Positions 2,644-54,000 of a stretch of DNA of 64,000 nucleotides are shown here, in pieces (the first letter of the stretch is position 1; every line of letters begins with the position of its first letter). This DNA is from an uncultured Planctomycetia bacterium (GTDB lineage: Bacteria > Omnitrophota > Gorgyraeia > Pluralincolimonadales > Pluralincolimonadaceae). The translations under genes and the position numbers were made by a program. The notes beneath the pieces were generated by a model that was not told the DNA's origin, did no database searches, and saw nothing but the letters and a program-made list of their open reading frames with translations. The stretch covers positions 1,726 through 65,725 of the forward strand of contig CAZYUB010000001.1 in NCBI GenBank assembly GCA_964650515.1, written 5' to 3'.

Positions 2644-2719
2644 GGTGGGCCTAAGAGGACTCGAACCTCTGACCTCTTCCATGTCAAGGAAGCGCTCTAA
2701 CCAACTGAGCTATAAGCCC
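2644..2719 (-). tRNA. tRNA-Val (anticodon GAC), CCA encoded
   Basis: Reverse complement GGGCTTATAGCTCAGTTGGTTAGAGCGCTTCCTTGACATGGAAG…GGTTCGAGTCCTCTTAGGCCCACCA has a cloverleaf with a CTTCC/GGAAG anticodon stem and GAC anticodon. Confidence 0.9.
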
Positions 2720-2761
2720 ACAGCGAACCTAAATTATAGCGATTAAAGGGTTTTAAGTCAA

Positions 2762-2801
2762 GGCAAAAACTGCCCCGCCCTCTCTCGGGAAAGGGCGGGG
2801 C
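2762..2801 (-). terminator. Intrinsic terminator of the PEP-CTERM gene 2849..3490
   Basis: Perfect 9-bp GC stem gccccgccc/gggcggggc with loop, followed on the minus strand by a TTTTT run. Confidence 0.7.
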
Positions 2802-2802
2802 G

Positions 2803-2831
2803 CTTCCTCGGGTTAGTTGGGGTTGAGGAAG
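2803..2831 (-). ncRNA. Conserved 3' UTR stem-loop (CTTCCTC-N15-GAGGAAG), copy 1
   Basis: Minus-strand CUUCCUCaaccccaacuaacccGAGGAAG lies between the stop codon and the terminator. Near-identical copies at 4069..4100 and 12227..12255 occupy the same position behind other PEP-CTERM paralogs. Confidence 0.5.
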
Positions 2832-2848
2832 TACATCTTTATGGACGT

Positions 2849-3490
2849 TTATTTAACCGTTTTTTTCCTTAATCCGAGCAGTCCAACAAGGCCTGATCCG
2901 AGTAAAAGAAGGCTTGTCGGCTCGGGAACGGTAAACTGCGTATCGTCAAACCATACTGTGCCGGTGGCGCTTGTGCCGGTCCCGGGAGCAAGCAGGGTCA
3001 GGCGATAGTCGATATACGCCGCGTTGGCAGGCGCTGTCCTCTCGGCCTCCGACCAGGAGCTTAAACTCTGGTACTGCCAATCTCCCGAACCTGAGGTCTG
3101 GTGGACTATGCCTATGCCGCTTCCCAGCTCTTCCTGGCTCGCGTTAAGCCATTTGCACTCCAGGTAGGCCTCTATGTTGCTGAGGTTCTGCCATTTCATC
3201 CATACGCCTCCGTCAACGACATCACCCGGATTTACGGCAAAGACCTGCTTCGCTCCGACCATCTCCCATGAATCGGTCGTAGAACCAGCGGAAATCTTCA
3301 GCGCCTGGCTGCCTCCATGGACTGAATCGGCAGCGTCATAATCGATCGTCCACTGCGGTCCCCAGTTGTAATCAAGCCACGGGCCCTGTCCTGCGCCCTC
3401 AAAGCCGGGATCTCCGATAGCGTTTGCGCACGCAAAAGACGGCGTGGATATGGCCGCCAAAACCGCTAATACTGCAATTAATCCCTTCAT
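2849..3490 (-). CDS. Secreted CBM4_9-like carbohydrate-binding-module protein with PEP-CTERM sorting signal
   Basis: Signal peptide; N(x)GFE motif after the signal, typical of CBM4_9 beta-sandwich starts. C-terminal VPEPTSLLLLGSGLVGLLGLRKK is a PEP motif plus TM helix plus basic tail. Confidence 0.8.
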   Translation of the reverse strand: MKGLIAVLAVLAAISTPSFACANAIGDPGFEGAGQGPWLDYNWGPQWTIDYDAADSVHGGSQALKISAGSTTDSWEMVGAKQVFAVNPGDVVDGGVWMKWQNLSNIEAYLECKWLNASQEELGSGIGIVHQTSGSGDWQYQSLSSWSEAERTAPANAAYIDYRLTLLAPGTGTSATGTVWFDDTQFTVPEPTSLLLLGSGLVGLLGLRKKTVK

Positions 3491-3530
3491 TTGTTCACCC
3501 CCTCTCCTTTTCCTTAGTTTAAAGTCTATT

Positions 3531-3585
3531 TGTAAACGCTTACATATTTACCTAAAAAATAGGGCGCTACACGTAAGCGCTTACA
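3531..3585 (-). promoter_or_regulatory. Twin LacI/cre-type palindromic operators (TGTAAACGCTTACA at 3531..3544; CGTAAGCGCTTACA at 3572..3585)
   Basis: Both are 14-bp near-perfect palindromes with central CG, matching the LacI/CcpA-family operator consensus TGTAAGCGCTTACA. O1 overlaps the predicted TSS and O2 precedes the RBS. Centres are 41 bp apart. Confidence 0.55.
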
Positions 3586-3593
3586 TTACCAGA

Positions 3594-3622
3594 ATAATAC
3601 CACCACCTACATTGATTGTCAA
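3594..3622 (-). promoter_or_regulatory. Sigma70 promoter (TTGACA-N17-TATTAT) of the PEP-CTERM CBM gene 2849..3490
   Basis: Minus-strand TTGACA (plus 3617-3622), 17-nt spacer, TATTAT (plus 3594-3599). Preceded by the AT-rich UP-like element AAAATTAGCAAAATAATAATC shared with other promoters in the island. Confidence 0.55.
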
Positions 3623-3627
3623 GATTA

Positions 3628-3984
3628 TTATTTTGCTAATTTTGAGGAATAAATGAGAGTATTTACGATAGCTATCGCGACAAATAACGTCAATGACCCG
3701 CCGCCGAAGAAGACGATGACCATAGGGTGCGTATCGTCGCGTACCGGAATGAAAAAACACGCCACCGCCGTGACCAATACCGGGACGGACCATATTACCA
3801 TCTGTCGCCCGCCGTATGCGTTTATCTCATACCACAATTCGGGCGACTTAAACGCTTTTGGCAGCCTGAACCCGTACCAGTAATTCATCGGTATCTTGCG
3901 CTTGGCGAGAGGGACTCCCAAAACGATAAACAGCAACCCCATTACCAGGTTTATTGTGATGAATGTCACCTGCGCGTCTGTCAT
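3628..3984 (-). CDS. SdpI/YhfL-family small membrane protein
   Basis: PMNYWYGFRLPKAFKSPELW matches the SdpI-family PxNxxxGxR motif and the protein has 3-4 TM helices. Start set at the internal ATG (3984) with AAGAGG RBS; the track ORF extends to 4032. Confidence 0.5.
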   Translation of the reverse strand: MTDAQVTFITINLVMGLLFIVLGVPLAKRKIPMNYWYGFRLPKAFKSPELWYEINAYGGRQMVIWSVPVLVTAVACFFIPVRDDTHPMVIVFFGGGSLTLFVAIAIVNTLIYSSKLAK

Positions 3985-4030
3985 CTTCTGCCTCTTTTGG
4001 TTAATTATACACCACAGGGCGGCCTCAGTC

Positions 4031-4067
4031 AAAAAAAATAGGGCGAGGATCTCGGGATCCCCGCCCC
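4031..4067 (-). terminator. Intrinsic terminator of gene 4113..4739
   Basis: GC-rich hairpin (gggcgaggatc…gatccccgccc) followed on the minus strand by T8. Confidence 0.65.
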
Positions 4068-4068
4068 T

Positions 4069-4100
4069 CTTCCTCGGGTTAGTTGGGGTGTTTGAGGAAG
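4069..4100 (-). ncRNA. Conserved 3' UTR stem-loop (CTTCCTC-N18-GAGGAAG), copy 2
   Basis: Minus-strand CUUCCUCaaacaccccaacuaacccGAGGAAG sits immediately 3' of the PEP-CTERM gene stop and 5' of the terminator. Confidence 0.5.
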
Positions 4101-4112
4101 ATATTTAGCGCA

Positions 4113-4739
4113 TTATGACCTTTTCCTTAAGCCGAGGAGTCCGACAAGCCCTGAGCCGAGAAGGAGCAGGCTAGCGGGCTCGGGTACAGGCGCCGTATCA
4201 AGGTAAGCATCATCAAAATAAGCGACGCCTGTGCCGCCGTCTACGGTCTGGTTCACGAAGAAAGCCAGGGAAGCGTATGACGCGGTGACCGGTGCGGCTC
4301 CGCTTATATTAAGGGCTGTCCAGTCGTGCGTACCGGTAAGTACCGGGGACGCGCCGGCCGTGCCGACCCATCCGCCCGACGCGTTGAACCAGTCGATCTT
4401 CACGAAGGCCTCTTCGTTGACGAGAGCGTTGGTCTTCGCAAATATGGTCCCGTAATATGTCGTACCGGGCGTAACGGCCGCCATCGTATTGCTGTACATG
4501 AAATAATCGTCGCCGGTGCCGGATGCGCTGTTCGACGTTATCTTCGTCGATTGCGCGCCGGTCCTTGCGGCTTCGGTGCTGCCGTATGTGCCCGTATGCT
4601 GGCTGTTTCCCCAGAGGCCGAGCCACGGGTCCTGGGCCGTATTCTCAAAGCCCGAGTTCGTAAGCATATTAGCGGCTTCCGATATAGAAGCGCTGAACAT
4701 TACTGCTATAGCTAAGGCCAATACTGCGGTAAATTTCAT
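4113..4739 (-). CDS. Secreted CBM4_9-like protein with PEP-CTERM sorting signal
   Basis: Signal peptide, NSGFEN motif, C-terminal VPEPASLLLLGSGLVGLLGLRKRS. Confidence 0.8.
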   Translation of the reverse strand: MKFTAVLALAIAVMFSASISEAANMLTNSGFENTAQDPWLGLWGNSQHTGTYGSTEAARTGAQSTKITSNSASGTGDDYFMYSNTMAAVTPGTTYYGTIFAKTNALVNEEAFVKIDWFNASGGWVGTAGASPVLTGTHDWTALNISGAAPVTASYASLAFFVNQTVDGGTGVAYFDDAYLDTAPVPEPASLLLLGSGLVGLLGLRKRS

Positions 4740-4751: not shown

Positions 4752-5282
4752 TTAGTTTCCTTTTTCTATTGTCACGTCAAAATCGTCAAAACAGGCCTCG
4801 CCTGTTGAACCGGCTATGCCTCTTGCGTATCCGAGCACCCTTGCCTCGATCGCCCCGGCAGGCGCTTTTCCGTTGACTTCCAGCTTCTTCCAGGGTATGG
4901 CGCCTTTCACATGCTCGCTCTCTTTATGCCCCGAACTCAAAGGGCCTGCGCTGCCCCAGAACTCAAGGCGCACAAAGGCCTCGGCACCGTTAGACAGCGA
5001 CTTGGAATCCGGGCTCATCACCCACGCGCTGGCTTTGACTACCTCCCCGGGGCTGACCGGTATCTGCTGCCCATAGCAACCCTGCCCTGCACCTTCGATC
5101 TGCCTGCAAGCCGCCTTCTCCCCGCTGTATTTATACTCGGTTGTTATGATCCCGTTGGTCTCCTGGTCATTCCAGTTGTACCAGCTCTCCTCGTCGGATT
5201 CAAAACCGGGATTGATAACGGTATTGGCATAGCAAACGGAACATATCGACATAGTAATGACCGCCAGGAAAATCTTCTTCAC
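4752..5282 (-). CDS. Secreted CBM4_9-like protein without PEP-CTERM tail
   Basis: GTG start with GGGAGGTG RBS; signal peptide; NPGFESDEESWYNW motif; ends FDDFDVTIEKGN with no PEP anchor. Its stop is 12 nt upstream of the next paralog, indicating an operon. Confidence 0.7.
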   Translation of the reverse strand: MKKIFLAVITMSICSVCYANTVINPGFESDEESWYNWNDQETNGIITTEYKYSGEKAACRQIEGAGQGCYGQQIPVSPGEVVKASAWVMSPDSKSLSNGAEAFVRLEFWGSAGPLSSGHKESEHVKGAIPWKKLEVNGKAPAGAIEARVLGYARGIAGSTGEACFDDFDVTIEKGN

Positions 5283-5320: not shown

Positions 5321-6469
5321 TTAACTCAAATGTTTTACTTGTAAAATATACCATCCGTTGCCCATCGCCTCGTCGTCCTTCCTGAGCCATTCCCTGCAAT
5401 CCTGTATCTTCGCCTTGACGAGCCCCGCGACTATAATGTCTTTTGCGCTATATGCCCTGCCTGCGATCTCGTAACAGTTAAGCGCGACCTCCAGGTTCCT
5501 GCGGTCCCCGCTGACGAGCGGAACGCTTAAGCTCCTGACCTTGGACTTATATTCGTCGCCCATGTAAAAACAGATGCCGTAATACGACTTCCTGTCGTCA
5601 GCATCCTCGATACTTTTGATGAAGAGCAGTATCGCGTCCCTTTCGAGGTTACTATAAGGCACGAGGAAACCGGCTTTCTTCATCTGCTGGGACCTGGCCC
5701 GGTATTCGTTTATCCTCTTCTCAGCCGACAGACGTGTCTGCGGGCTTTGGGCGAAACGCGACGCCAGGTCGTAGCAGAGCGGAGCGATGCGGAAATAACC
5801 GAATTCGTCGTCCTCGAACCTTCCTATCTGCGCCCTTGCGGCATAGCAGTCCCCGAGATCTATATATCTTCTCGCGCAGGCCTCTTTCTCTTCGGCCGTC
5901 CCGAGCCCCGCTATTATCCCCGCGATAAGCTCGGAATCCTTTTTATTCGCGGGTTTTACTATCCCGCCGTTCGCGAATTCCTTTTTCATCTCGGCAAGGC
6001 CCATGGACGGGACGGAATTATCGCCATGGTCCATCTTTATTATCTTCTCCGCCCTCCTCTTTACCGTGTCTATGTACGCCATTTGGCTGGCCGCCAACTT
6101 TCCGTACGAAGGGTCTATGTCGATAGCCATCGAGAATTCCGCATCGGCGTGGTCGATCATGCTGTTCTCGAGGCAAAATATCCCAAGCTTATAATGGTCC
6201 TGGGCGCTGTTCGGGGATATCTCCTTCACCTTCCCGGCGTATACCTCCTCCGGGCCCGGCGCGGACTCGTCCTCCTTCCTCACGATCGAGGCGACGAGGC
6301 CCTTCTTTATCTTCTCCGTCGCCCCCGAAGCGCTCCTGAACTTCACGGCCGTATCCGTCTCATCCAGGACTTCTCCCTGCATTATCCCGCCGCTCCTCAA
6401 CAGGACCGTATCGGCATATGAGGGGCTTGATAAGGACAATATGACGAACACGATGATGTGCCTGTTCAT
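5321..6469 (-). CDS. Secreted hypothetical protein, 382 aa
   Basis: Signal peptide (…SSPSYA/DT). No family recognised. Translationally coupled to the GspK-like gene (1-nt overlap at 6469). Confidence 0.5.
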   Translation of the reverse strand: MNRHIIVFVILSLSSPSYADTVLLRSGGIMQGEVLDETDTAVKFRSASGATEKIKKGLVASIVRKEDESAPGPEEVYAGKVKEISPNSAQDHYKLGIFCLENSMIDHADAEFSMAIDIDPSYGKLAASQMAYIDTVKRRAEKIIKMDHGDNSVPSMGLAEMKKEFANGGIVKPANKKDSELIAGIIAGLGTAEEKEACARRYIDLGDCYAARAQIGRFEDDEFGYFRIAPLCYDLASRFAQSPQTRLSAEKRINEYRARSQQMKKAGFLVPYSNLERDAILLFIKSIEDADDRKSYYGICFYMGDEYKSKVRSLSVPLVSGDRRNLEVALNCYEIAGRAYSAKDIIVAGLVKAKIQDCREWLRKDDEAMGNGWYILQVKHLS

Positions 6470-8718
6470 CAGATATCCCCTTCCCTGTAATAGGATATAC
6501 GCACGTCGGGCAGATACGTTATCGTCACATCCTCAAGGGCGATCGTCTCGCTCAGGTACGGCTCGGTCCCGAGGCCGGAAGACGGTGTATCAAGAGTCGT
6601 AAAGTTCGCCCTGAACTGTATGCTCGGCGATGCCGGCGAAATGACCGCGCTTCCCGGAAGGATACCGGGAGACGGCAGGGTCCATGAGGCGCCTCCGTCA
6701 ACGCTTGTCTGGAAATACACGATCTCCGAAGCCGGATTCGCTCCCTGGCTGAGCGTCACGGTAGCCCCGATCGTCCCCCACCTGACATCCCCTTCCGGGC
6801 TCACGAACGGTTTTGATTCGAAATAACCTCCGTCCTGCGGGATGACCCTTATGCCGTCGGCCCAGCACATCGGCGTAGGCGTCATCATAGCGCCGTGCGC
6901 CTGCCAACCGACCTGCCCCGATGTATGGTTGCTCGTATAAGTATTATGGATATACCTCTGCAGCTCGGGCGGCCCGCCCTGCCTATAAGCGTAAAAATAG
7001 TGGTCGGTATCGGATAAGGTGACCGTTATCGAGGTGTTCGTGACATAATATCCGTTGCTGAGCCATCCGGTCATAAGGTTGCCCGGCCCGACCTGCGTCT
7101 GCATCTCCGCCCATGTCGTGTCGGCGGGAGGGTTGCCGTATTCCTGCTTCATCCTTACCGTATCGTCGCTGCCGAGCATGTGCCTGCTTAAGTTCATCAT
7201 CACGTCCCACTGCTTGTATTCATAACCCGTCACCTGCATCTTCCTGTATGGGGATATGCCGTCGGATACCGTCGCCCTGAAGGCAAACCTGTCCCAATCC
7301 AGTTCCGGCGGCAATGATGGCTGCTGCCCGAGGACCGTTATCGGGGCGTTGTAAGGCGCGACCATCTGCGGTATGAATACGAGCTCGTTCTTGCCGTCGG
7401 AATTTTCGTCCTTTATCGTGTTAGAGTCCGTCCGGGGGAACCAGAAATACGAAAGCCTGTTGCTCATCGACGCTTCCATCCAGCGCCCTTCGATATAGAA
7501 CATGGACGCGTCCCCGGAAAATGTGTCGTCCATATTGTCCCAGAAACCGTTCTTTACCGAGTCCGGGACGGTCCTGTAATCCGACCCGTGGTTCCAGCTG
7601 TTCACGGAATTTATCGTCTCGACCGGGCAGGAGTCGAGCGTGTTCGTCTTAAATGCGGCCGGGGCGGTGTCCCCGTCGCTGCCCTGAAAATGCTCTTTTG
7701 CGGTCTGGTTCAATATGCCGTAGATCCTTACGAGCGATACGGCCTTCTTTTTCGCGTTATCGGCAAGTCCTGCCGACTCTATCAGGTACCACCCTCCGGG
7801 ATGGAAGCAGAAGTCGGTCGTATAGCCCGCCGGCTTTACCCGGTTCGGGTTCGCGTTGTCTTTTATCTTCTGCCTGTCGTCGGCGTCCAGCGGAGGGGTA
7901 ACCGGTACGGTATCGATGAATCCCTCGAATTGGCGCCATCCGGTAAAAGGTGACGAGGCCCTGTACGCAAGGATCGCGCCGGCCAATGATTCGGCCTTCT
8001 CCCCGGTAATGACACCGGACAATACGGCCCTTAAGACCTGCGCGCTTGCCGTATTTATGTTAACCGGTGATTTCGGCATATAAGGTTCTCCGCGGACAGA
8101 GTCGTCGCTATTGGCGTCCACATAACCTACAACGGTTATATAATCTTTTATCGCGTCGAATTTTGTCCTGTCGATGGATGAATACACCATTATCTCTTCC
8201 GCGGTAATATATCCCGCGGCCGGGCGGTTGTCGGCTATCGACTGCCCGTCGCTCTCGGAAAGCGGCGATCCGACGGCCACGGCCAGGTTGCCCAGTATAT
8301 CCCTGATCCTCGCGTTGGGGTCGTTTATATTTATGCGGCCCGCGGAATCCGATATCCTGACCGCGAATGACGCCGGGACCCTTTCTCCGGACAGTATGCC
8401 GCTGGCCCCGTTTCCGATGACGCCGTCATATGCATCCAGTGAAGGATTGGCCGCGCCGGGATAAGCCCATTCGTCCAAAGGCATTGCATTGAAATCCGCG
8501 CCGGCGATCTCCCTCATGCGCGCTATTGCAAGCGCTATGCCGGCTTGCGCGGCATATATAGCTTTGGTATTGTCCCGGAAATTAGAGGCAAACTTGTATT
8601 CAGACACCGATAACATCGCAAATGACGTCGCTATAGCCGCCAACAGGGCCAACACGCAGACCGAAACGAGCAAGGCTGCACCGCGTTTCATCCCTTTTCT
8701 CACCAGGCCCATTTTCAT
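6469..8718 (-). CDS. Giant GspK/PilX-like minor pseudopilin (749 aa) with a large unknown C-terminal extension
   Basis: N-terminus KRGAALLVSVCVLALLAAIATSF…AAQAGIALA resembles the GspK hydrophobic segment and following helix. The internal PVNINTASAQVLRAVLSGV is the GspK helix-hairpin-helix NINTA motif. About 400 further residues have no recognisable family. Confidence 0.55.
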   Translation of the reverse strand: MKMGLVRKGMKRGAALLVSVCVLALLAAIATSFAMLSVSEYKFASNFRDNTKAIYAAQAGIALAIARMREIAGADFNAMPLDEWAYPGAANPSLDAYDGVIGNGASGILSGERVPASFAVRISDSAGRININDPNARIRDILGNLAVAVGSPLSESDGQSIADNRPAAGYITAEEIMVYSSIDRTKFDAIKDYITVVGYVDANSDDSVRGEPYMPKSPVNINTASAQVLRAVLSGVITGEKAESLAGAILAYRASSPFTGWRQFEGFIDTVPVTPPLDADDRQKIKDNANPNRVKPAGYTTDFCFHPGGWYLIESAGLADNAKKKAVSLVRIYGILNQTAKEHFQGSDGDTAPAAFKTNTLDSCPVETINSVNSWNHGSDYRTVPDSVKNGFWDNMDDTFSGDASMFYIEGRWMEASMSNRLSYFWFPRTDSNTIKDENSDGKNELVFIPQMVAPYNAPITVLGQQPSLPPELDWDRFAFRATVSDGISPYRKMQVTGYEYKQWDVMMNLSRHMLGSDDTVRMKQEYGNPPADTTWAEMQTQVGPGNLMTGWLSNGYYVTNTSITVTLSDTDHYFYAYRQGGPPELQRYIHNTYTSNHTSGQVGWQAHGAMMTPTPMCWADGIRVIPQDGGYFESKPFVSPEGDVRWGTIGATVTLSQGANPASEIVYFQTSVDGGASWTLPSPGILPGSAVISPASPSIQFRANFTTLDTPSSGLGTEPYLSETIALEDVTITYLPDVRISYYREGDI

Positions 8719-10508: not shown

Positions 10509-10620
10509 CGATATCTCCTTCAGTATATGAGTTTCTTATTACTAAATTGTTTTACCAGTTAATAAAGATACCACCGGAATGCGCTTTTGTCAAATAAATA
10601 TTATGCGGAGGGAATAGGCA

Positions 10621-10667
10621 GGAAATAGAAAAAGAGCTTCCAATTCCTGGAGCGGAAGGTTGGAAGC
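10621..10667 (-). terminator. Intrinsic terminator after gene 10703..11335
   Basis: Hairpin gcttccaa…ttggaagc followed by a T-rich tract on the minus strand. Confidence 0.5.
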
Positions 10668-10702
10668 CCTTTTTCGTCCCCCTACTTCTTAAGCTATACT
10701 GC

Positions 10703-11335
10703 TTACTTCTTTCTCGAAAAACCTACCAAACCGATCAGGCCTGAGCCGAGAAGCAGCAGGCTGGCCGGTTCCGGAACGGCTGCGACGTCAAAGTTGAAGT
10801 TGTCGAAATCGCTCTGGCCGGGTACCTCATAAAGCGGAGCAGCACCGTAGGTGCCGAACATGACCCTTGCCTTAACAGCGTCGGTCGGCGCAACCACAAC
10901 ACCGGTATCTCCGAGGTTATACTGATCCCTTGTCAGGGCCTTCATGTCAATCGTCCTTGTGAGCGCGGTTGAGCCGTTGGCTCTGAGGAATTTCACTCCG
11001 ATATAAGATCCCCAAGCGCCGGCTACCGAACCTGAGGGGACCCACGCATAACCCGTAAGACGATACGATTCTCCGCCCGTGATGTTGACTTCCTGCTTCA
11101 AACCGCCATCGTTGTAGTTATGAAGGTTCCAGGCGCCGTTCTGAGGATTATCCTGCACGCCTGCCTGATTGCCGGCATTCCAGCCATCGGGAGCTTCGGC
11201 AGACCAGCCATACGTATGGCTTCCGTCAACCGAGATCTCAAAATCACCGTTGACCAACAGGTTCGCGCTGGCTACGCCAGGCACCAACAGCACTACCAAG
11301 CTTACCAATGCTACTAGTTTACCCATCTTTTTCAC
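10703..11335 (-). CDS. Secreted CBM4_9-like protein with PEP-CTERM sorting signal
   Basis: GTG start, signal peptide, NLLVNGDFE motif, C-terminal AAVPEPASLLLLGSGLIGLVGFSRKK. Confidence 0.8.
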   Translation of the reverse strand: MKKMGKLVALVSLVVLLVPGVASANLLVNGDFEISVDGSHTYGWSAEAPDGWNAGNQAGVQDNPQNGAWNLHNYNDGGLKQEVNITGGESYRLTGYAWVPSGSVAGAWGSYIGVKFLRANGSTALTRTIDMKALTRDQYNLGDTGVVVAPTDAVKARVMFGTYGAAPLYEVPGQSDFDNFNFDVAAVPEPASLLLLGSGLIGLVGFSRKK

Positions 11336-11349: not shown

Positions 11350-11980
11350 TTACTTTTTCCTCTTGTTAAACAACCCTACTCCCAACAATCCACTTCCCAG
11401 CAATAACATACTGGCGGGTTCCGGAACGGGGGCGGATTCAACGATGAGGTCATCAAAGATTCCCCCTTCCGTCACCACTGCCAGTACCAACATTGTTGAC
11501 TTCCCAAACCATGGTCGCCTTGACTATGTCGGATCCGTAGCTTGACGGGGTCACCAAAGCTGTCATATCATTCCAAACATTGTCCGCAAGCTCATTGCCC
11601 GTAAGGTTTCCCGTGGTCCACGTTCCCACTATGGAATCATCCGAACGCTTGAATTCCACCCTTAATGAAGCGAATGTGCCGTTCCTGAGGGATTCATTCC
11701 CGGCAGCATCATCAAACAAATAACCGCCGACTCTATACACCGAACCGGGATCCGTTATCGTGACATCCTGCCAGCCCGATGTCGCCCACCAACCTGCGGC
11801 GGAATAGCTGCCTGAATTTCCCCATGCATTTATAGTCGCATTTGTGCCGTTCCATTGGCTCCATCCGGTAAAATCCCCGCTTTCGAACCCGGAGTTGGCC
11901 AGAAGATTGGCGTGCGCCATTGAATATGAGGATAGCATCATTGCGAGAGCGATTACTAATGCGGCTTTTCTCTTCATCAT
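11350..11980 (-). pseudogene. PEP-CTERM CBM4_9-like paralog interrupted by a +1 frameshift in a G5 run (~11460)
   Basis: ORF 11453..11980 ends …GDGRGNL*. The next frame continues GIFDDLIVESAPVPEPASMLLLGSGLLGVGLFNKRKK*, the expected PEP-CTERM tail, ending at 11350. The intact paralog 12261..12932 reads GDGRGIFDDLMV… through the same point. Confidence 0.6.
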
Positions 11981-12012: not shown

Positions 12013-12084
12013 AATCGGACATAATAAACTGTTTTTGTCATTCGGTTGATTTTGTATTTCAGAAGTTGCTGCCGTAGACCATTA

Positions 12085-12139
12085 TTCGACACGTGTTTAA
12101 GAGTGCCTATAATATACATTAAGAAAGTAAAAGTGTCAA
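12085..12139 (-). promoter_or_regulatory. Sigma70 promoter (TTGACA-N17-TATATT) with a TTAAACACGTGTCGAA operator box at +4..+20
   Basis: Minus-strand -35 is plus 12134-12139 and -10 is plus 12111-12116. The imperfect palindrome around CACGTG at 12085..12100 lies immediately downstream. It carries the same UP-like upstream element as the other island promoters. Confidence 0.5.
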
Positions 12140-12185
12140 GAGAATTAAATTGCTTATTTATAGTTCTTTATTGCTCTATATGAGA

Positions 12186-12220
12186 ACAAAAAATGCGGGA
12201 GGGCGTTCCTGCCCTCCCGC
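12186..12220 (-). terminator. Intrinsic terminator of gene 12261..12932
   Basis: Hairpin gcgggagggc…gccctcccgc followed on the minus strand by ATTTTTTGTT. Confidence 0.7.
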
Positions 12221-12226
12221 ACGCTT

Positions 12227-12255
12227 CTCCCTCGGGTTATTGGGGGTTGAGGAAG
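12227..12255 (-). ncRNA. Conserved 3' UTR stem-loop (CTTCCTC-N15-GAGGGAG), copy 3
   Basis: Minus-strand CUUCCUCaacccccaauaacccGAGGGAG occupies the same position (stop, stem-loop, terminator) as copies 1 and 2. Confidence 0.5.
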
Positions 12256-12260
12256 AATAT

Positions 12261-12887
12261 CTACTTCCTGGAGCTCTTCTTTCCTATTCCGAAAATACCG
12301 ATCAGGCCTGAGCCGAGAAGCAATAAGCTTGCCGGTTCCGGTATCGGCTGTGTATCTACCATCAGGTCGTCGAATATACCGCGGCCGTCTCCAGAACCGC
12401 TGTTATTGACTTCCCATACCAGAGTTACATGGTCGATACCGACACCATAGCTCGACGGCGTAACAATGGCTGTCTTGTCGTTCCATACGTTGTCTGTCAG
12501 GTTGGCGCCGGTCAAATTGCCGGTCGTCCAGGTCCCAACGATGTTGTTGGCGGCATTCTTGAATTCTGCCCTTATCGAGGCATACCCGCCGTTCCTGAGC
12601 GATTCGTTTCCCGCGACGTCATCATAGATGTAGCCGCCGATCCTCACCGACGCATTTGCGTCCGTGATAGCTGCGTCCTGCCATGCTGATGTCGCCCACC
12701 AACCTGCTGCGGAATAATTGCCCGTACGGCCCCAGCTGTTCATTGCCGTATTGGCGCTGTTCCACTGTCCCCAGTTACTGAAACTCCCCGTCTCAAATCC
12801 AGCGTTGCTGAGAAGATTAGCGGCATCCGCGTGAACCGGAATTACGAGAGCTGCTGCAAACAGAAGCACTGCAAACAACTTTCCCAT
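12261..12887 (-). CDS. Secreted CBM4_9-like protein with PEP-CTERM sorting signal
   Basis: Start placed at the internal ATG with AAAGGAGGA RBS (the track ORF extends to 12932). Signal peptide, NLLSNAGFETGSFSNW motif, C-terminal PIPEPASLLLLGSGLIGIFGIGKKSSRK. Confidence 0.8.
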   Translation of the reverse strand: MGKLFAVLLFAAALVIPVHADAANLLSNAGFETGSFSNWGQWNSANTAMNSWGRTGNYSAAGWWATSAWQDAAITDANASVRIGGYIYDDVAGNESLRNGGYASIRAEFKNAANNIVGTWTTGNLTGANLTDNVWNDKTAIVTPSSYGVGIDHVTLVWEVNNSGSGDGRGIFDDLMVDTQPIPEPASLLLLGSGLIGIFGIGKKSSRK

Positions 12888-12908
12888 AACTTTTCCTCCT
12901 TTCTTCAA

Positions 12909-12923
12909 TTCGACACGTGTTGA
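12909..12923 (-). promoter_or_regulatory. ACACGTGTCGAA box, RBS-proximal copy
   Basis: Minus-strand AACACGTGTCGAA about 25 nt upstream of the start codon of gene 12261..12887. Confidence 0.45.
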
Positions 12924-12977
12924 GTTATTCATTACAATAATCCCTTGCCGGAACTAATAGGGATTTATTTAGAACGA

Positions 12978-13032
12978 TTCGACACGTGTTTAATTGTTAA
13001 TTTATTATGCATTAAGTAAGTGTTCATGTCAA
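12978..13032 (-). promoter_or_regulatory. Sigma70 promoter (TTGACA-N18-ATAATA) with a TTAAACACGTGTCGAA box at +3..+18
   Basis: The -35 is plus 13027-13032, the -10 is plus 13003-13008 and the box is 12978..12993. A hairpin TCCCT…AGGGA at 12941-12970 lies between the two box copies. Confidence 0.5.
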
Positions 13033-13063: not shown

Positions 13064-14086
13064 TCAGGAGGGCTTGACGGACTCTCTGCGAATGTATTCC
13101 GGAGTGAAAATTACCGTATCGTTCTCTATCTTTTTTCCCGATACTATATCCAATAACATCTGCGCGGCGGTCTTGCCAATCTCGACCAGCGGAAGCCTCA
13201 TGGAACTCAATGTCGGAGATCCCGGCGGAAAAGGGAACATGTCGTTGAAACCTATTACCGAAATATGCTCGGGGACCGAAAGGCCGTCGTCACGTATCCT
13301 TCTTATCGCGGCAAGCGCCATGACGTCGTCCGAAGCCACTATGCCGGTGATCCTCGGCTCCTGCTTCAACAGGATACCGGTAGCTTCGTATGCTTTTTCG
13401 TAGATAAACAGCCCTTCGGCCACAAGGTTTTCGTCGAATCCCGCGCCCGCTTCGGATAACGCCTTTTTGTATCCCGCAAGCCTGTCCTGGTCGAGCTGGA
13501 ACCTTAACGCGCCGCTGAGGAACGCTATCCTTTTATGGCCGGTGTCGAGCAATTCCTTCGTCGCCCTGAAAAGGCCTTCCTTGTTATCTATCAGGACCTT
13601 GGGTATCTTCGCCTCCTTTATGTACCTGTTCACGAGCACTACCGGGAACTTCTTTTCGAAAAGCGTCATCACATCCTTCTCGAGGGCTTCTTCGACGAGT
13701 ATGCACATGCCGTCGACCCTTTTTTCTTCGAAGGCCTTCATGTAATACGGGGAAAGCGGTTCTTCTTTCGGCTTTATCGCACGGGTCAACTGGAAATAAT
13801 AACCGTTCTTCTCCAGCACTCCGGCAATGCCGCTGACTACGTGGCTGAAATACGAATAATATATGTCCTCGAAATCTTTTACCACTACGGCGATGTTGAA
13901 TGTCTTCCTGCTGACAAGGCTGCGGGCTATCACGTTAGGCGTGAAATCAAGGTCCGCGACCACCTTGCTGACACGCTCCTGCGTCTTCTTGCCCACCTTC
14001 TGGAGGTCCTTACCGTTTATGACCCTCGAGACGGTGCTTATGGATACTTTCGCTTTTTTGGCTATGTCTTTATATGTATATGCCAT
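13064..14086 (-). CDS. LacI-family transcriptional regulator
   Basis: N-terminal HTH (YKDIAKKAKVSISTVSRVINGK) and periplasmic-binding-fold effector domain. Its ATG overlaps the TAA of the upstream glycosidase-like gene. Confidence 0.85.
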   Translation of the reverse strand: MAYTYKDIAKKAKVSISTVSRVINGKDLQKVGKKTQERVSKVVADLDFTPNVIARSLVSRKTFNIAVVVKDFEDIYYSYFSHVVSGIAGVLEKNGYYFQLTRAIKPKEEPLSPYYMKAFEEKRVDGMCILVEEALEKDVMTLFEKKFPVVLVNRYIKEAKIPKVLIDNKEGLFRATKELLDTGHKRIAFLSGALRFQLDQDRLAGYKKALSEAGAGFDENLVAEGLFIYEKAYEATGILLKQEPRITGIVASDDVMALAAIRRIRDDGLSVPEHISVIGFNDMFPFPPGSPTLSSMRLPLVEIGKTAAQMLLDIVSGKKIENDTVIFTPEYIRRESVKPS

Positions 14087-16587: not shown

Positions 16588-17241
16588 TCAGCTCTTCTTC
16601 CTTCTCCCAAGACCGATAAGCCCAACCAGCCCTGTGCCGAGCAAGAGCATGCTTGCCGGTTCGGGGACGGGCGCAAACGACATATCATCCACCCACAACG
16701 TGCTGTTAGGTGAATACGCACCGCTTGTCGTAAGTGCGACAACGGCGGATACCTTAGCCGTCCCTGCGGGGGCGGCCGCGGCCGCGACAGAAATAGGGTG
16801 CCAGGTGTCTGCTGTTGCCGAGTTGTCGAATAAGGCACTCTCATCTACGCGGATAACGTTGCCAAGCGAGTTATACCATTTTACCTGCAGCTTGGCCGAG
16901 CTGCCGTCCTTAAGCGCATCAGCGGAATTCCACAGGAAATTACCATTCAGTAAGTAGGGGGCACTGAAATCGATCCCTGTAAAGTCCTCGTTGAAATACG
17001 CATAATCGGTGCCGCTTCCGCCCCAGATGACCACCTTCGCCGCCTTGGCGCCGCTCATCGCAACCGAAGAATCATAGAATGAGTCGCCGTTAGCGCCGCC
17101 GCTCCATGTCCACGGGCCATCCTTTATAACAATAGCCGATCCGCCGTTCTCGAAACCCGGATCGCTCAGGAGGTTGGCAGATGCCTGGGATGAAAAAACA
17201 CCGAATACCGCTATCATCAGTATTACCCTGAATATCTTCAT
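16588..17241 (-). CDS. Secreted CBM4_9-like protein with PEP-CTERM sorting signal
   Basis: Start at the internal ATG with GGAGGTG RBS. Signal peptide, NLLSDPGFENGG motif, C-terminal APVPEPASMLLLGTGLVGLIGLGRRKKS. Confidence 0.8.
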   Translation of the reverse strand: MKIFRVILMIAVFGVFSSQASANLLSDPGFENGGSAIVIKDGPWTWSGGANGDSFYDSSVAMSGAKAAKVVIWGGSGTDYAYFNEDFTGIDFSAPYLLNGNFLWNSADALKDGSSAKLQVKWYNSLGNVIRVDESALFDNSATADTWHPISVAAAAAPAGTAKVSAVVALTTSGAYSPNSTLWVDDMSFAPVPEPASMLLLGTGLVGLIGLGRRKKS

Positions 17242-17380
17242 TATTTCACCTCCTTTCATTATTAAGTTAAACGTTTTCCTTTCAAACCTTAAAAAAAGGA
17301 AAACGATTTCCTTTACTTGGAAAGTCTATCATATCCCAGAATAAAGTCAAGATTATTAAATTGTTATTTTGTAGTAATAA

Positions 17381-18031
17381 TTAGAGGTAATCCGGAAGGA
17401 CCTTTACCGCTTCGCGTATGAACTTCCTGCATCTTTCGAGCGCGGCTGTCGTGTCGTTATCCGTTATGGCTGTCCATACCCTTATGGCCGACCCGCCGCT
17501 CTTGCCGCCCTTGAGCTGGTTGATGACGAAATACAACTGCTGCCTGTAGAAATTCTCCGTCATTACATCTCCGGCGGTGTACCAGTCAAGCATCAGCACC
17601 TTGTTCTTCGATATCTGGTAGATCGACTCGTTGGCCGACATTGCCTTCCCCCCTCCAAGGTCGATATCCGCCTTTCCCTGCGTGAGCATCTCGGTGCGGC
17701 CGCTCCCGAGATAGCAATATTCCGGAGGATGGAAACTCTGCCTCTTCTGGTCCGAATATACCACCTGCATCGACACCCTTTCGTTACCAGGCCCGAGGTA
17801 GGTGCGTATCAACACTTTGTCCGTCCCGAGGACCTCGTATACCTGTTTCAGGTATTCTTTGTCCTTGAACTCGACGTTCGTCCCCTTCCACCCGGAGACG
17901 TTCATCGGGAAGGACATCAGCCTTACTTCGCGCGCCGGTGCCCTTTTGATCGACGACATGAAAAATACCGCGGCCGCGCACACGGTGAGCATGGATACGG
18001 CAATTATCGTATTTAGGTCTTTTTTGTCCAC
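17381..18031 (-). CDS. epsI: EpsI-family exosortase-associated protein
   Basis: ~215-aa protein with a single N-terminal TM, overlapping and directly downstream of the exosortase gene. Matches the EpsI (methanolan-locus) family by architecture. Confidence 0.6.
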   Translation of the reverse strand: MDKKDLNTIIAVSMLTVCAAAVFFMSSIKRAPAREVRLMSFPMNVSGWKGTNVEFKDKEYLKQVYEVLGTDKVLIRTYLGPGNERVSMQVVYSDQKRQSFHPPEYCYLGSGRTEMLTQGKADIDLGGGKAMSANESIYQISKNKVLMLDWYTAGDVMTENFYRQQLYFVINQLKGGKSGGSAIRVWTAITDNDTTAALERCRKFIREAVKVLPDYL

Positions 18032-18849
18032 GACAACACTCTCCCTGCTAATATCAATCCCGCTATCGCGAATACATATACAAGGAAACCGAGAAAATCA
18101 TGCGCAAAGGTCCCCGGGGACGCCGCCTTTGCGTCATAAGCGAACGCTATGAGCAAAAGGAGCACGATCCGGATTATATTCGCCCCTAGGGCGATGGGTA
18201 TGGACAGCGCGAATATCACGATCTTCTTGACCGTTGACATCTTGATCAGATAAGCGTAAAGGGCGCCTAAGGCGGTCAGGGCTATCAGCGAACTTAGGCC
18301 GCTGCAGGGGCTGCCTATAGTCAGGAACGTATCCGGCCTCAAGTGCACGATGCTGCCGTCCCTGACGGCCGGGACCCCCATAAGGTTGATCATGAACGTC
18401 GCCGCCTGCGCGGCCATCATCTTCATCTTGAAACTTACGCTTATTATGAAGACCTGCGGCAGCGGGATCATGAACACAAGGAACAGGATCGCGAACGCTA
18501 TCTTCCTCGTTATACCCGAGCCGTAAATGTAAAGCGATAGCCCAAACAACGCAAATATAAGCGTGAACCCGGAGATGAAGTTGATCTCGAAAAAATACGC
18601 GAACAGGTGCAGCAGGAGCGCCGGCAGGAACAGCGCCAAACCGATACCGAGGGGTTTTATTTCCGTGTTCTTTAGCTCGTTCCTTTTCAGCCAGACCAGG
18701 TACGCGAAAACGAAGGGAACGAGGTAACCGTGCGAATAATAGGTGTCGGCTTCTTCAAAGCGCGCCATCATCCAGATGAAAGTCGGCCAGTAGACCGCTA
18801 TCAAAAGAGCTCCGACTATGAAAGGCCCGAACCTGGATATAGTTCTCAT
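18013..18849 (-). CDS. Exosortase (XrtA/EpsH family)
   Basis: 278-aa polytopic membrane protein with ~8 TM helices, sized and organised like exosortases, surrounded by 6 PEP-CTERM substrates and EpsI. Confidence 0.75.
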   Translation of the reverse strand: MRTISRFGPFIVGALLIAVYWPTFIWMMARFEEADTYYSHGYLVPFVFAYLVWLKRNELKNTEIKPLGIGLALFLPALLLHLFAYFFEINFISGFTLIFALFGLSLYIYGSGITRKIAFAILFLVFMIPLPQVFIISVSFKMKMMAAQAATFMINLMGVPAVRDGSIVHLRPDTFLTIGSPCSGLSSLIALTALGALYAYLIKMSTVKKIVIFALSIPIALGANIIRIVLLLLIAFAYDAKAASPGTFAHDFLGFLVYVFAIAGLILAGRVLSWTKKT

Positions 18850-34256: not shown

Positions 34257-35114
34257 TTAAAGGTGCCGGTGAATATACTCGGGAATATGGTATTCTATGC
34301 CTGTAAGGACATATCCTAGGATATTCGCACCGACACTTTTTAGCACGCTTTCCGCGCGCGCCACGACTTCCCTGCGGGTCCTTCCCGCCCTTATGACCAG
34401 CACCGTCCCATCCGCGATATGGCTTAATATACGGGCGTCGGAATACGGTATGACTGCCGGCGTATCCAGAATTATCCTGTCGTACTTGCCTTTGAGCTCG
34501 AACAGAACGTCTTTCATCTTCTGAGAGCTGAGCAATTCATTCGGGTTGCCGTGAATATGCCCGGCGGGGATGACAAAAAGATTCTTAGTGTCGCATGCCA
34601 CTAATACGCCGGAGATGTCCGACGAGCCGGACAATAATTCACCGAGCCCCTTTTCCGAGGATATGCCCATCAGGCCTCCGATAGAAGGCCTCCTGAGGTT
34701 GCAATCGATAAGAAGCGTGGGTTTCCCGGAATTTTGCGCCGTGACAACGGCCAGGTTGGCCGCTGCAACACTTTTCCCTTCTCCGGTTGACGCGCTCGTG
34801 ATGATAACAGACCTAAGTTTGCTTTCCCTTTCGGGGCAGAATATATGCGTATATATCGTATGGAACTGCTCGGCTACGGGACTGCCGGGATTATGGTATG
34901 CTACTATCTTCTTGTTTACTCCCGACGACAGAACGGCCTCCGCGCGGACCTGCGACGGCGCATCAACTGCAGGGCGCTGCGCTACAGGCGGGTTGCCAGC
35001 GGACGGAGCGGCCTGCGGAGTCGCCGGGCCGGACTGGAAGGCCTTGCCTTTTTCCTCCGCTGCCCTTTTTATGGCTTCGTTTATCTTGTTTATCCCGTTG
35101 CCGTTATCTTGCAT
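34257..35114 (-). CDS. Polysaccharide co-polymerase tyrosine autokinase (BY-kinase/CpsD-like ATPase domain)
   Basis: Walker A SASTGEGKS, Walker A' LLIDCNLRRP and Walker B RIILDTPA. Confidence 0.7.
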   Translation of the reverse strand: MQDNGNGINKINEAIKRAAEEKGKAFQSGPATPQAAPSAGNPPVAQRPAVDAPSQVRAEAVLSSGVNKKIVAYHNPGSPVAEQFHTIYTHIFCPERESKLRSVIITSASTGEGKSVAAANLAVVTAQNSGKPTLLIDCNLRRPSIGGLMGISSEKGLGELLSGSSDISGVLVACDTKNLFVIPAGHIHGNPNELLSSQKMKDVLFELKGKYDRIILDTPAVIPYSDARILSHIADGTVLVIRAGRTRREVVARAESVLKSVGANILGYVLTGIEYHIPEYIHRHL

Positions 35115-40517: not shown

Positions 40518-40604
40518 TGGTGCCGGGAGAGGGGGTCGAACCCTCATAACCTTGCGGTCGCGAGATTTTAAGTCTCGTGCGTCTGCCAGTTCCGCCATCC
40601 CGGC
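40518..40604 (-). tRNA. tRNA-Leu (anticodon TAA), type II with long variable arm, CCA encoded
   Basis: Reverse complement GCCGGGATGGCGGAACTGGCAGACGCACGAGACTTAAAATCTCG…GGTTCGACCCCCTCTCCCGGCACCA, 87 nt. Confidence 0.85.
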
Positions 40605-40618
40605 GGTCTTCGGAAATT

Positions 40619-40693
40619 TGGAGGCGACGATCGGAATCGAACCGATGCATCGCGGTTTTGCAGACCGCTCCCTTACCACTTGGGTACGTCGCC
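40619..40693 (-). tRNA. tRNA-Cys (anticodon GCA), CCA encoded
   Basis: Reverse complement GGCGACGTACCCAAGTGGTAAGGGAGCGGTCTGCAAAACCGC…GGTTCGATTCCGATCGTCGCCTCCA, 75 nt. Confidence 0.85.
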
Positions 40694-40761: not shown

Positions 40762-41172
40762 TTATCTGATCTTTACGTGCCCGCCCTTGTAAAGGTAGAC
40801 ACCGCCGCTGCCGTGGTTAGGGCATGTGATGATAACCACCGTAGAAGCCGTGCTTCCCGTGGGCTGCGCAGCATACGTATAGGCGGTCGTTCCGCTCGGG
40901 CATGTGAACACCGACTGATCGTCTATATACGTAGGAGCGCTCGTCAACCTGGTATTAAGTACGGCTATCGTGGCCGCCGGGTACTGCTCGTTGTTATCGG
41001 CGGTATACATCATGATCGCCGTGCCTATCTGCTTCAGGTTGTTGGCGCACGTCGTCTTCCTAGCCTGTTCCCTCGCCCTGCCGAGTGCCGGCATAAGTAA
41101 ACCTGCTAGTATAATTATGATGGCCATAACGACCAGCAGCTCGATAAGGGTGAAACCTTTTGTTTTACGCAT
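40762..41172 (-). CDS. Type II secretion/type IV pilin-like pseudopilin (prepilin N-terminal methylation domain plus DUF1559-like), copy 1
   Basis: [22 protein letters not shown] prepilin signal and hydrophobic helix, then …CANNLKQIG…Y, characteristic of DUF1559-type pseudopilins. Confidence 0.75.
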
Positions 41173-41634
41173 CTTTTTTCACCTCCTTTCCTGTGAAATT
41201 TGCCGCCCCAGGCGTACAGCCGGGGGCGGCATTAAAACCTACCTGATCTTTACGTGCCCGCCCTTGTAAAGGTAGACACCGCCGCTGCCGTGGTTAGGGC
41301 ATGTGATGATAACCACCGTAGAAGCCGTGCTTCCCGTGGGCTGCGCAGCATACGTATAGGCGGTCGTTCCGCTCGGGCATGTGAACACCGACTGATCGTC
41401 TATATACGTAGGAGCGCTCGTCAACCTGGTATTAAGTACGGCTATCGTGGCCGCCGGGTACTGCTCGTTGTTATCGGCGGTATACATCATGATCGCCGTG
41501 CCTATCTGCTTCAGGTTGTTGGCGCACGTCGTCTTCCTAGCCTGTTCCCTCGCCCTGCCGAGTGCCGGCATAAGTAAACCTGCTAGTATAATTATGATGG
41601 CCATAACGACCAGCAGCTCGATAAGGGTGAAACC
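40766..41634 (-). repeat. Tandem direct repeat: two 392-bp 100%-identical copies (40766..41157 and 41243..41634), period 477 bp
   Basis: Direct comparison of the two pseudopilin genes shows nucleotide identity from the stop codons through codon ~8. Only the first ~7 codons and the upstream regions differ. Confidence 0.85.
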
Positions 41635-41649
41635 CCTCTTCCTGTTCAT
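41239..41649 (-). CDS. Pseudopilin (prepilin N-terminal domain plus DUF1559-like), copy 2, identical to copy 1 after residue 7
   Basis: [15 protein letters not shown]…, 136 aa. Confidence 0.75.
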
Positions 41650-41664
41650 GTCCCCTCCTCTTTT

Positions 41665-53976: not shown

Positions 53977-54000
53977 TTCTAAACGCAGTCCCTTTTTTTG

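Follow-up and report, generated by a model that had tools for sequence, protein, structure and literature searches.

A conserved hairpin between stop codon and terminator in the mRNAs of a PEP-CTERM protein family of Candidatus Omnitrophota

Hairpin copies and their host genes

The 64,000-nt window analyzed here (the whole stretch of DNA under study, from contig CAZYUB010000001.1 of an uncultured bacterium assigned to Omnitrophota) contains three minus-strand genes for carbohydrate-binding module (CBM)-like PEP-CTERM proteins, and the same short hairpin follows each of them in the 3′ untranslated region (UTR). Gene c1 (2849..3490) encodes a 213-aa secreted CBM-like protein with a PEP-CTERM anchor. 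Gene c2 (4113..4739) encodes a 208-aa CBM_4_9-like PEP-CTERM protein and is the second gene after a CBM-like gene at 4752-5282. Gene c3 (12261..12887) encodes a further PEP-CTERM protein; its likely start is the ATG at 12887, preceded by a GGAGGA Shine-Dalgarno (SD) sequence, and the longest open reading frame (ORF) reaches 12932. All three proteins are ~210 aa long, with a signal peptide and a C-terminal PEP-CTERM domain (PF07589) scoring above the Pfam gathering cut-off. A family profile compared with solved structures matched a CBM over nearly the whole middle domain (2zex, E = 8e-6), and 10 of 29 family members have CBM_4_9 matches, which agrees with an earlier sequence-only reading that had called the hosts PEP-CTERM CBM genes. 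Core, or middle-domain, identity among the c1, c2 and c3 proteins is only 23-35%.

The hairpin copies, with arms CUUCCUC…GAGGAAG, lie at 2803-2831, 4069-4100 and 12227-12255, exactly where the sequence-only reading had placed them, and share the minus strand with the host genes, for which it is the sense strand. Their general form is CUUCCUC-[AA..CCCAA(C)UAACCC]-GAGGAAG, with a length of 29-32 bases. Copy 1 (2803..2831) has a 7-bp stem, made of the 5′ arm CUUCCUC (2831-2825) and the 3′ arm GAGGAAG (2809-2803), around the loop AACCCCAACUAACCC (2824-2810). Copy 2 (4069..4100) has the 18-nt loop AAACACCCCAACUAACCC and a stem that can be extended to 8 bp. Copy 3 (12227..12255) has the loop AACCCCCAAUAACCC and the 3′ arm GAGGGAG, which forms one U.G pair, and its stem extends to 9 bp across 12225-12257. 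A covariance model run on the 64-kb window recovered the three copies at 53-56 bits (54.1, 55.6 and 53.4 bits for copies 1, 2 and 3, respectively; E about 1e-13), and the next best match, a plus-strand site (36557-36614) opposite the ORF 35104-36735, reached 17.6 bits. The pattern CCUC-N8-25-CCCGAGGAAG had 2 matches in the window versus 0 in 100 shuffles. Given this absence of matches in shuffled sequence and the wide gap in model scores, the hairpin pattern is not due to chance.

Each copy stands between a stop codon and an intrinsic terminator with a GC-rich stem and a U tract, an arrangement proposed from the sequence that holds in all three cases, in position and in fold. The terminators, also on the minus strand, occupy 2762..2801 (copy 1, with a 13-bp stem), 4030..4067 (copy 2) and 12185..12222 (copy 3), and a terminator scan called every one of them (2801-2772, 4067-4040 and 12222-12193, respectively). 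The hairpin-to-terminator gap is 0-2 nt in the window copies. The distance from stop codon to hairpin is 17 nt for c1, where an A/U-rich spacer fills 2832..2848, and it falls to 12 nt for c2 and 5 nt for c3, so the 15-20 nt of the sequence-only reading needs correction. The minimum-free-energy fold of each 3′ UTR consists of hairpin and terminator (z = -4.1 to -6.4), with an ensemble frequency of 0.34-0.69 for this fold, and the hairpins alone fold at -7.8 to -10.2 kcal/mol.

Three other PEP-CTERM genes in the window (10703-11335, 11350-11980 and 16588-17259) carry no hairpin and run into a terminator or the next gene; the element is therefore not a general property of PEP-CTERM genes. The gene at 11350-11980 (minus strand) is the paralogue nearest to c3. 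Compared with an intact orthologue in a related locus (L010), it contains one additional G that breaks it into two ORFs, and it represents either a frameshifted pseudogene or misassembly of a G run. Gene 10703-11335 has a conserved 3′ UTR of its own (10620-10702, minus strand), in which a G-rich block, GAAGUAGGGGGACGAAA, precedes a conserved terminator, GGCUUCCAACCUUCCGCUCCAGGAAUUGGAAGCC. This 3′ UTR is nearly identical in six related loci (L006, L007, L010, L011, L017 and L018), which makes it a candidate second 3′-UTR element in the same gene neighborhood.

Constraint, distribution and natural variants

An alignment of 17 distinct hairpin sequences delimits what is constrained. The core stem CUUCCUC/GAGGAAG is essentially invariant, and no variation occurs in CCCAA(C)UAACCC, which makes up the 3′ two-thirds of the loop. 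Loop length varies from 15 to 18 nt, with the variation confined to the 5′ side, where AA, AAA, AAAA, AAAAA, AAAAU and AAACA occur. The loop is free of G and may be viewed as a pair of (A/U)CCC units with a spacing of about 9-10 nt (AACCC-N4-5-AACCC), and the most conserved block comprises the 3′ half of the loop together with the 3′ arm. The covariation analysis suggested alongside the original sequence-only reading gave no signal (score 0.080 versus a shuffled mean of 0.084 for the 17 distinct hairpins; no core pair changed on both sides), because the stem sequence itself does not vary.

The few stem substitutions are nevertheless informative. They comprise an A>G change in the 3′ arm, found in c3-type copies and separately in locus L026, and a C>U change in the 5′ arm of the c3 copy of L007. 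Each leaves a U.G pair in the sense RNA, where the antisense RNA or a DNA cruciform would have a C/A mismatch. In the L016 copy, one U is deleted from the 5′ arm, leaving a bulged A, and CCC/GGG pairs are gained further out; the other stem variation consists of non-pairing flanks outside the 7-bp core. Since substitutions preserve pairing, through wobble, only in the sense strand, and the stem is otherwise frozen, the element is best described as a sense-strand RNA helix whose sequence matters beyond its pairing.

Two pattern scans covered whole sequence collections. One covered one genome per species for 185,579 species and returned seven loci, among which the true ones belong to three metagenome-assembled genomes (MAGs) of Candidatus Omnitrophota (L006-L008). 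The loci outside Omnitrophota (L002-L005) were rejected as chance matches, with neither an extended stem nor the layout of stop codon, hairpin and terminator; roughly ten chance matches are expected from this pattern. The other scan applied a looser pattern to Joint Genome Institute (JGI) metagenome contigs and yielded ten loci with 18 matches. Viral contigs scanned by pattern gave 0 matches. After de-duplication, 25 distinct copies were found by pattern across the scans, the window and loci retrieved by homology, and two were added independently of any pattern, namely the c1 copy of L027 (from its gene table) and the L026 copy (by covariance model), for a total of 27.

Each of the 27 copies follows a PEP-CTERM gene of this family and immediately precedes a terminator. 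The hairpin-to-terminator gap is 0-3 nt in every copy, L026 included, and the distance from the stop codon is 5-26 nt in 26 of the 27 copies, with about 118 nt in L026 as the exception. Because spacing to the terminator is constant and spacing to the stop codon variable, hairpin and terminator together appear to be the functional unit. None of the 27 copies, as recovered by the pattern and covariance-model searches, falls inside a coding sequence (CDS) or a virus, and every true copy follows a PEP-CTERM gene, in keeping with the original expectation that unrelated contexts would be absent. The proposed association with PEP-CTERM genes stands in that sense and is narrower than first drawn, as only one ~210-aa CBM-like paralogous family in a narrow Omnitrophota clade is concerned. 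True copies were found only in Candidatus Omnitrophota relatives among the 185,579 species genomes and the JGI metagenomes. The species-representative genomes gave 1-2 pattern matches each and a single metagenome contig gave up to 3, and a genome carries at most 3-5 copies. Since the hairpin loci are 70-88% identical in DNA to the window and syntenic with it, the clade carrying the element is narrow, roughly at genus to family level.

Because the patterns behind most of the loci fix part of the sequence, the observed invariance is partly ascertained. A sample independent of the patterns comes from loci retrieved by protein homology to c1. The hairpin is present in L026 (55% identity to c1), in L021 and L025 (56-69%) and in L027, which was retrieved via the c2-like protein P0030, and it is absent from L019, L022, L023 and L029 (47-54%), which puts the limit of its occurrence near 55% identity to c1. 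No diverged or intermediate copies were detected by covariance model in the window and 21 loci, where scores of true copies began at 38.8 bits and noise did not exceed 17.6 bits. These homology-retrieved loci, together with the neighboring copies in multi-copy loci, argue that the ascertainment bias is small. L019 also carries a Y1 (IS200/IS605-type) transposase gene at 6050-6715, and its c1 homologue has neither the PEP-CTERM domain nor the hairpin; no link between the transposase gene and the hairpin was found.

Hairpin conservation far exceeds that of the surrounding sequence. In the c1 group, mean pairwise identity is 0.98 for the hairpin versus 0.45 at third codon positions, 0.70 in the spacer (minimum 0.44 among c1 orthologues) and 0.56 in the next 45 nt, which hold the terminator. 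The corresponding values are 1.00, 0.51, 0.64 and 0.86 in the c2 group, 0.96, 0.89, 0.92 and 0.78 in the c3 group, and 0.96, 0.71, 0.81 and 0.78 in the d group (d and e are our labels for two further paralogue types present only in related loci). The c3 and d groups are less diverged, and the contrast is clearest in c1 and c2. Copy 1 is identical at 29 of 29 positions in its orthologues from L006, L007, L008, L010, L012, L025 and L027, and for copy 2 identity is 100% across 6 orthologues. Among c1 orthologues, the same 29 nt of copy 1 are followed by at least 4 unrelated terminator sequences. The hairpin is the longest exact match to the window for L012, L016, L021 and L025 and joint-longest for L015, and for L008 it is third-longest, after tRNA-Val and a piece of thrS. 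The relatives in this comparison are only about 70% identical overall, and conservation of the hairpin is comparable with that of tRNA-Val.

Exchange between paralogues also leaves traces. Paralogue-specific loop variants (the AAACA insert in c2 and CCCCCAAU in c3) are identical across species, which indicates that the c1, c2 and c3 copies have long been separate. The c1 copy of L021 has the loop and terminator of a d-type copy of the same genome, and the c1 terminators of L006 and L007 resemble that of c2. Within genomes, terminators are shared between the 3′ UTRs of c1, c2 and d-type genes in L021, L006, L007, L018 and L025. Recombination between 3′-UTR modules seems to have occurred, probably seeded by the identical hairpin. 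Such exchange cannot explain identity across species, which requires purifying selection. Comparison among species thus shows that purifying selection acts strongly on the sequence of the stem as well as the loop, and the conservation in relatives on which the sequence-only reading depended is strong, at 96-100% among orthologues.

Two natural variants depart from the common arrangement. In L027 (4255-4300), a deletion has removed the 5′ arm and joined the coding end of c2 to the loop, whose UAA has taken over as stop codon. The c2 gene and its terminator are intact, from which it follows that one hairpin copy can be lost. In L026 (1586-1775), 118 nt separate the stop codon from the hairpin and its own terminator, and an additional long hairpin that resembles a terminator and has a U tract comes before them; no sigma-70-like promoter was predicted between that extra hairpin and the hairpin unit. 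The unit has been kept even though it is perhaps off most of the mRNA.

Several other roles for the element were considered and rejected. As a back-up stop or recoding signal, the loop UAA would be in frame in c1 and c3, whereas in c2 and d-type copies it falls out of frame with the ORF. Coupling to ribosome termination does not fit a stop distance that varies over 5-26 nt and reaches 118 nt in L026. A small ORF started by the SD-like 3′ arm would have no start codon ahead of the terminator. Finally, a pseudoknot or antiterminator pairing of the loop CCCC with terminator G-runs is at odds with a G-rich arm that is 5′ in some terminators and 3′ in others.

Surroundings of the host genes

The host genes share their neighborhood with a sorting system for PEP-CTERM proteins. 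The exosortase gene epsH lies at 18013-18849 on the minus strand (Exosortase_EpsH, 201 bits), adjoined by a gene for an EpsI-family DUF3485 protein (17381-18031, minus strand), part of the sorting machinery, and an exopolysaccharide (EPS) biosynthesis cluster extends from about 19 to 36 kb. The window thus holds PEP-CTERM substrates as well as an EpsH exosortase, the components of a PEP-CTERM/exosortase system.

Near-consensus promoter-like sites precede c1 and c3 separately, and the two leaders carry different operator motifs. The c1 leader has two LacI-type palindromes, TGTAAACGCTTACA and CGTAAGCGCTTACA, at 3531-3544 and 3572-3585 (minus strand; 2 matches versus 0.05 expected), and a small terminator-like hairpin with a U run (3564-3580, minus strand) overlaps one of them. 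LacI-type sites similar to those of c1 occur in L025 and L027, with a comparable leader hairpin also in L027, and a LacI-family gene is located at 13064-14086. The c3 leader has two AACACGTGTCGAAT sites. Three exact copies of this motif occur in the window (12084-12097, 12908-12921 and 12977-12990, minus strand; 0.28 expected), distributed over the leaders of c3 and of the next transcription unit (11980-10703), and AACACGTGTCGAAT is probably the operator of a regulator other than that of c1. Because their operator motifs differ, the hairpin is the feature that c1 and c3 have in common.

Each gene downstream of a hairpin-terminator unit has its own near-consensus promoter. Between c2 and c1, a gene for an SdpI/YfhL-family small membrane protein (3628-3985, minus strand) has such a promoter at 4032-4004; promoter and start are also found in L006 and L007, and the gene is absent from L027. 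Farther away, three tandem type IV pilin-like genes (40762-42069, minus strand), with an N-terminal methylation motif and DUF1559, lie directly upstream of tRNA-Cys and tRNA-Leu genes (40518-40693); the first two share 97% DNA identity. The region 52310-63991 looks like a replication-origin neighborhood, judging from its gene content. The minus strand carries rpmH (58217-58354), rnpA, yidD, yidC, a Jag-N ORF (55745-55948), mnmG/gidA, parA and parB, the plus strand carries dnaA (58524-59885), dnaN and gyrB, and orientation switches at about 58.4 kb.

Proposed function and known counterparts

The hairpin matches no described RNA family. At gathering thresholds, Rfam 15 reported only three tRNAs in the whole window, and permissive E-values over 2700-4200 added two chance-level matches (L20_leader at 18.8 versus a threshold of 58.7 bits, and snoR9 at 12 versus 90). 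We found no literature on RNA elements or RNA-level regulation of the PEP-CTERM/exosortase system. Judging from its conservation, the element is a genuine, previously undescribed and strongly selected 3′-UTR RNA motif of narrow distribution. Its general class is that of bacterial 3′-UTR regulatory hairpins and 3′UTR-derived RNAs, within which the motif is new.

We tentatively favor the possibility, which falls short of being probable, that the hairpin serves as a 3′-end recognition and stability tag, a docking site for one shared trans-acting factor. On this proposal, the sense-strand hairpin and the intrinsic terminator would form one unit at the 3′ end of mRNAs for CBM-like surface proteins, a small family of paralogues that are regulated by sugar and sorted by exosortase. 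The 7-9-bp pyrimidine/purine stem would present the G-free, C-rich loop, and a single shared factor, most likely an RNA-binding protein, would dock sequence-specifically beside the terminator helix. Once bound, the factor would determine how long the 3′ end persists or how it is processed, and the family would gain a common post-transcriptional control over differing transcriptional operators. We infer the existence of this partner, its protein nature and an outcome in 3′-end stability. The stem shows no compensatory change while the adjacent terminators turn over completely, which points to one partner shared by many sites. Likewise, stem and loop are frozen in paralogues that otherwise diverge freely, which suggests that a shared reader recognizes all copies, and the copies are kept independently of the host protein, behind proteins only 23-35% identical.

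The closest known cases for a docking site are, by analogy, apo-AcnB on the acnB 3′UTR and ProQ on cspE (PMC7821165). There, protein-bound stem-loops on acnB, cspE and other 3′ ends control decay, and the likeness extends to a stem-loop at or near the 3′ end whose bound protein is proposed to shield the mRNA from RNase E, RNase II or PNPase (PMC7821165). However, ProQ reads shape and the acnB element belongs to a single gene, whereas the Omnitrophota hairpin is invariant in sequence and common to 3-5 genes.

Several observations weigh against a docking site. The helix lacks covariation support, and divergent copies may have been missed by a pattern that fixes sequence. The tag is dispensable for at least one gene, as the L027 c2 deletion shows, and the L026 arrangement fits an independent RNA better than an mRNA tag. 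Gene conversion between paralogues contributes to within-genome uniformity. No candidate RNA-binding protein gene was seen among the scanned ORFs of the 64-kb window, where the Jag homologue (55745-55948) is a 67-aa N-terminal domain only, with no KH or R3H domain. Moreover, a protein that reads an A-form stem by sequence is unusual.

An invariant stem-loop across a whole small gene family is an unusual trait, for which the metazoan histone 3′ stem-loop is the best functional analogy. In metazoans, a conserved stem and loop ends every mRNA of one family, is read by one dedicated protein, the stem-loop-binding protein (SLBP), places the whole family under post-transcriptional control and replaces polyadenylation. 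The likeness to the Omnitrophota hairpin is one of function only, with no homology. By extension, the hairpin could be a family-specific 3′-end tag, a bacterial counterpart of the histone stem-loop and SLBP that marks the mRNAs of exosortase substrates for one dedicated RNA-binding factor; we regard this stronger form as unlikely. Such a factor would co-ordinate mRNA stability or hold transcripts near the membrane. The PEP-CTERM anchor is still in the ribosome tunnel at the end of translation, making the proteins effectively tail-anchored, so membrane proximity could matter.

The main alternative to the docking site, possible if doubtful, is a multicopy 3′UTR-derived small RNA (sRNA) that acts in trans. 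The hairpin and terminator, about 65-80 nt, would be cleaved off in the A/U-rich spacer or transcribed separately. The seed would consist of the C-rich loop and its continuation into the 3′ arm (CCCAACUAACCCGAGG), pairing with G-rich targets elsewhere in the genome at GGGUUAGUUGGG-like complementary sites, and the 5′ arm would be frozen only through its pairing with the constrained 3′ arm. Such RNAs typically combine a freely varying terminator with an invariant block just 5′ of it, as is the case here (hairpin 0.96-1.00 versus terminator 0.56-0.86); the spacing is fixed to the terminator and not to the stop codon, the 3-5 copies per genome would be redundant, with one lost in L027, and the L026 unit persists behind another terminator. 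A close precedent exists in the CcsR 'cuckoo' RNAs (CcsR1-4) of Rhodobacter sphaeroides and other Alphaproteobacteria, which likewise occur in several copies per genome, with a C-rich loop, in the 3′ UTR of a protein gene (PMC8034643). Their hairpins have an anti-SD-like loop and are recognized by the small RNA-binding protein CcaF1 (PMC8034643). The CcsR copies, however, stand in tandem behind one gene (PMC8034643), whereas the Omnitrophota hairpins each follow their own paralogous gene; the CcsR motif CCUCCUCCC occurs in two loops per RNA, whereas the Omnitrophota element is one hairpin with two ACCC units; and CcsR stems vary where the Omnitrophota stem is invariant and shares no sequence similarity with them. 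Targets did not stand out either. Complements of GGGUUAGUUGGGG at up to 3 mismatches number 10 in the window versus 15 expected, and predicted duplexes between the three loops and 57 gene-start regions reached at best -16.1 kcal/mol (shuffled mean -15.3, shuffled minimum -19.7), in a search that covered 64 kb plus flanking loci and is weak negative evidence. Nor was a promoter predicted ahead of the L026 unit. A generic 3′ structure with no specific partner, which blocks 3′ exonucleases or aids termination and is uniform through descent and gene conversion, is improbable. Extra 3′ hairpins are familiar mRNA stabilizers, as in repetitive extragenic palindromic (REP) elements and the Bacillus thuringiensis cry retroregulator, the terminator and loop modules exchanged between paralogues in L021, L006 and L007 fit this explanation, and the PEP-CTERM-coding 3′ ends are similar in DNA. 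However, gene conversion within a genome cannot maintain an identical 29-nt sequence in different species, given that synonymous sites between them are nearly saturated, the loop variants AAACA and CCCCCAAU are stable across species, and the compensatory changes to be expected of a generic structure, as seen in the neighboring terminators, do not occur in the stem.

The remaining explanations give the hairpin a partner in its own leader, its own terminator or the DNA. Pairing between 5′ and 3′ UTRs of the icaR type, with the 5′ arm or loop CCCC acting as an anti-SD on the gene's own ribosome-binding site (RBS) and the 3′ arm GAGGAAG masking it as an internal mimic, is quite improbable. CUUCCUC is complementary to an SD-like GAGGAAG, the purine-rich SDs are strong (GGAGAGGGGG in c1, AGGAGGAA in c3), and in the icaR 3′UTR of Staphylococcus aureus a UCCCC pairs with the gene's own RBS (PMC3868564; PMC7821165). 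The resemblance includes a C-rich 3′UTR motif, a surface- or exopolysaccharide-linked gene and an SD-complementary pyrimidine tract (PMC3868564, PMC7821165), but the icaR 3′UTR is about 390 nt long and belongs to a single gene, whereas the Omnitrophota element is a 29-nt, terminator-abutting, family-wide hairpin. Moreover, the C-run and the arm stand in an order that is not collinear with that of the c1 leader, a G-run is missing from the c2 leader, pairing of the c2 loop with the c1 leader (-14.3 kcal/mol) falls inside the range of shuffled loops, and the most conserved block is not the anti-SD-like arm. Regulated termination, in which binding of a factor or an alternative terminator pairing would modulate read-through in a ribonucleic antiterminator (RAT)/BglG-type or NusA-dependent style, seems very improbable. 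The hairpin abuts the terminator in every copy, and the genes are carbohydrate-related and stand under a LacI-type operator. However, in contrast to RAT/BglG-SacY antiterminators, hairpin and terminator are adjacent and non-overlapping and coexist in the minimum-free-energy fold, the G-rich arm differs between terminators so that no uniform alternative pairing exists, and read-through would have no obvious use given the near-consensus promoters of the downstream genes. Least credible is a DNA-level element, be it an inverted-repeat site for a dimeric protein, an attC-like recombination site or a mobile palindrome of the REP or miniature inverted-repeat transposable element (MITE) type. The arms do form a perfect 7-bp inverted repeat in most copies, and the L026 module has shifted relative to its gene. 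However, a conserved spacer sequence of variable length (15-18 nt) argues against a dimeric DNA-binding site, stem substitutions break the DNA symmetry and keep RNA wobble pairs, and the 1-3 pattern matches per species genome lie in one context at constant orientation to the gene. REP elements and bacterial interspersed mosaic elements (BIMEs) of Enterobacteria and Pseudomonas are conserved palindromes that often lie between stop codon and terminator and can stabilize upstream mRNA, with hundreds of copies behind unrelated genes and associated REP-associated tyrosine transposases (RAYTs). The Omnitrophota hairpin reaches 3-5 copies per genome at most and always follows a member of a single gene family, with no further covariance-model copy in the window. 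It differs from attC sites in having no GTTRRRY/RYYYAAC core in register, in the promoter-like sites of c1 and c3 and in the individual terminators of all three copies. The scanned window ORFs include no reverse transcriptase, integrase, RAYT or other transposase, and so offer no diversity-generating retroelement (DGR), integron or transposon context.

A few dozen cases of regulation by bacterial 3′ UTRs have been described, nearly all of them from cultured Proteobacteria and Firmicutes (PMC7821165). The narrow distribution of the hairpin and a host without a culture limit its immediate impact. It nonetheless provides a well-delimited 3′-UTR element in Omnitrophota, a phylum known here only from metagenome assemblies, that is tied to PEP-CTERM/exosortase surface proteins. 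If the copies were a multicopy sRNA, sugar-induced expression of surface lectins would be linked to another set of targets. Overall, a stem and loop that stay invariant behind paralogues only 23-35% identical imply a dedicated partner, one that would give this family of surface proteins a common control at the 3′ ends of their mRNAs.

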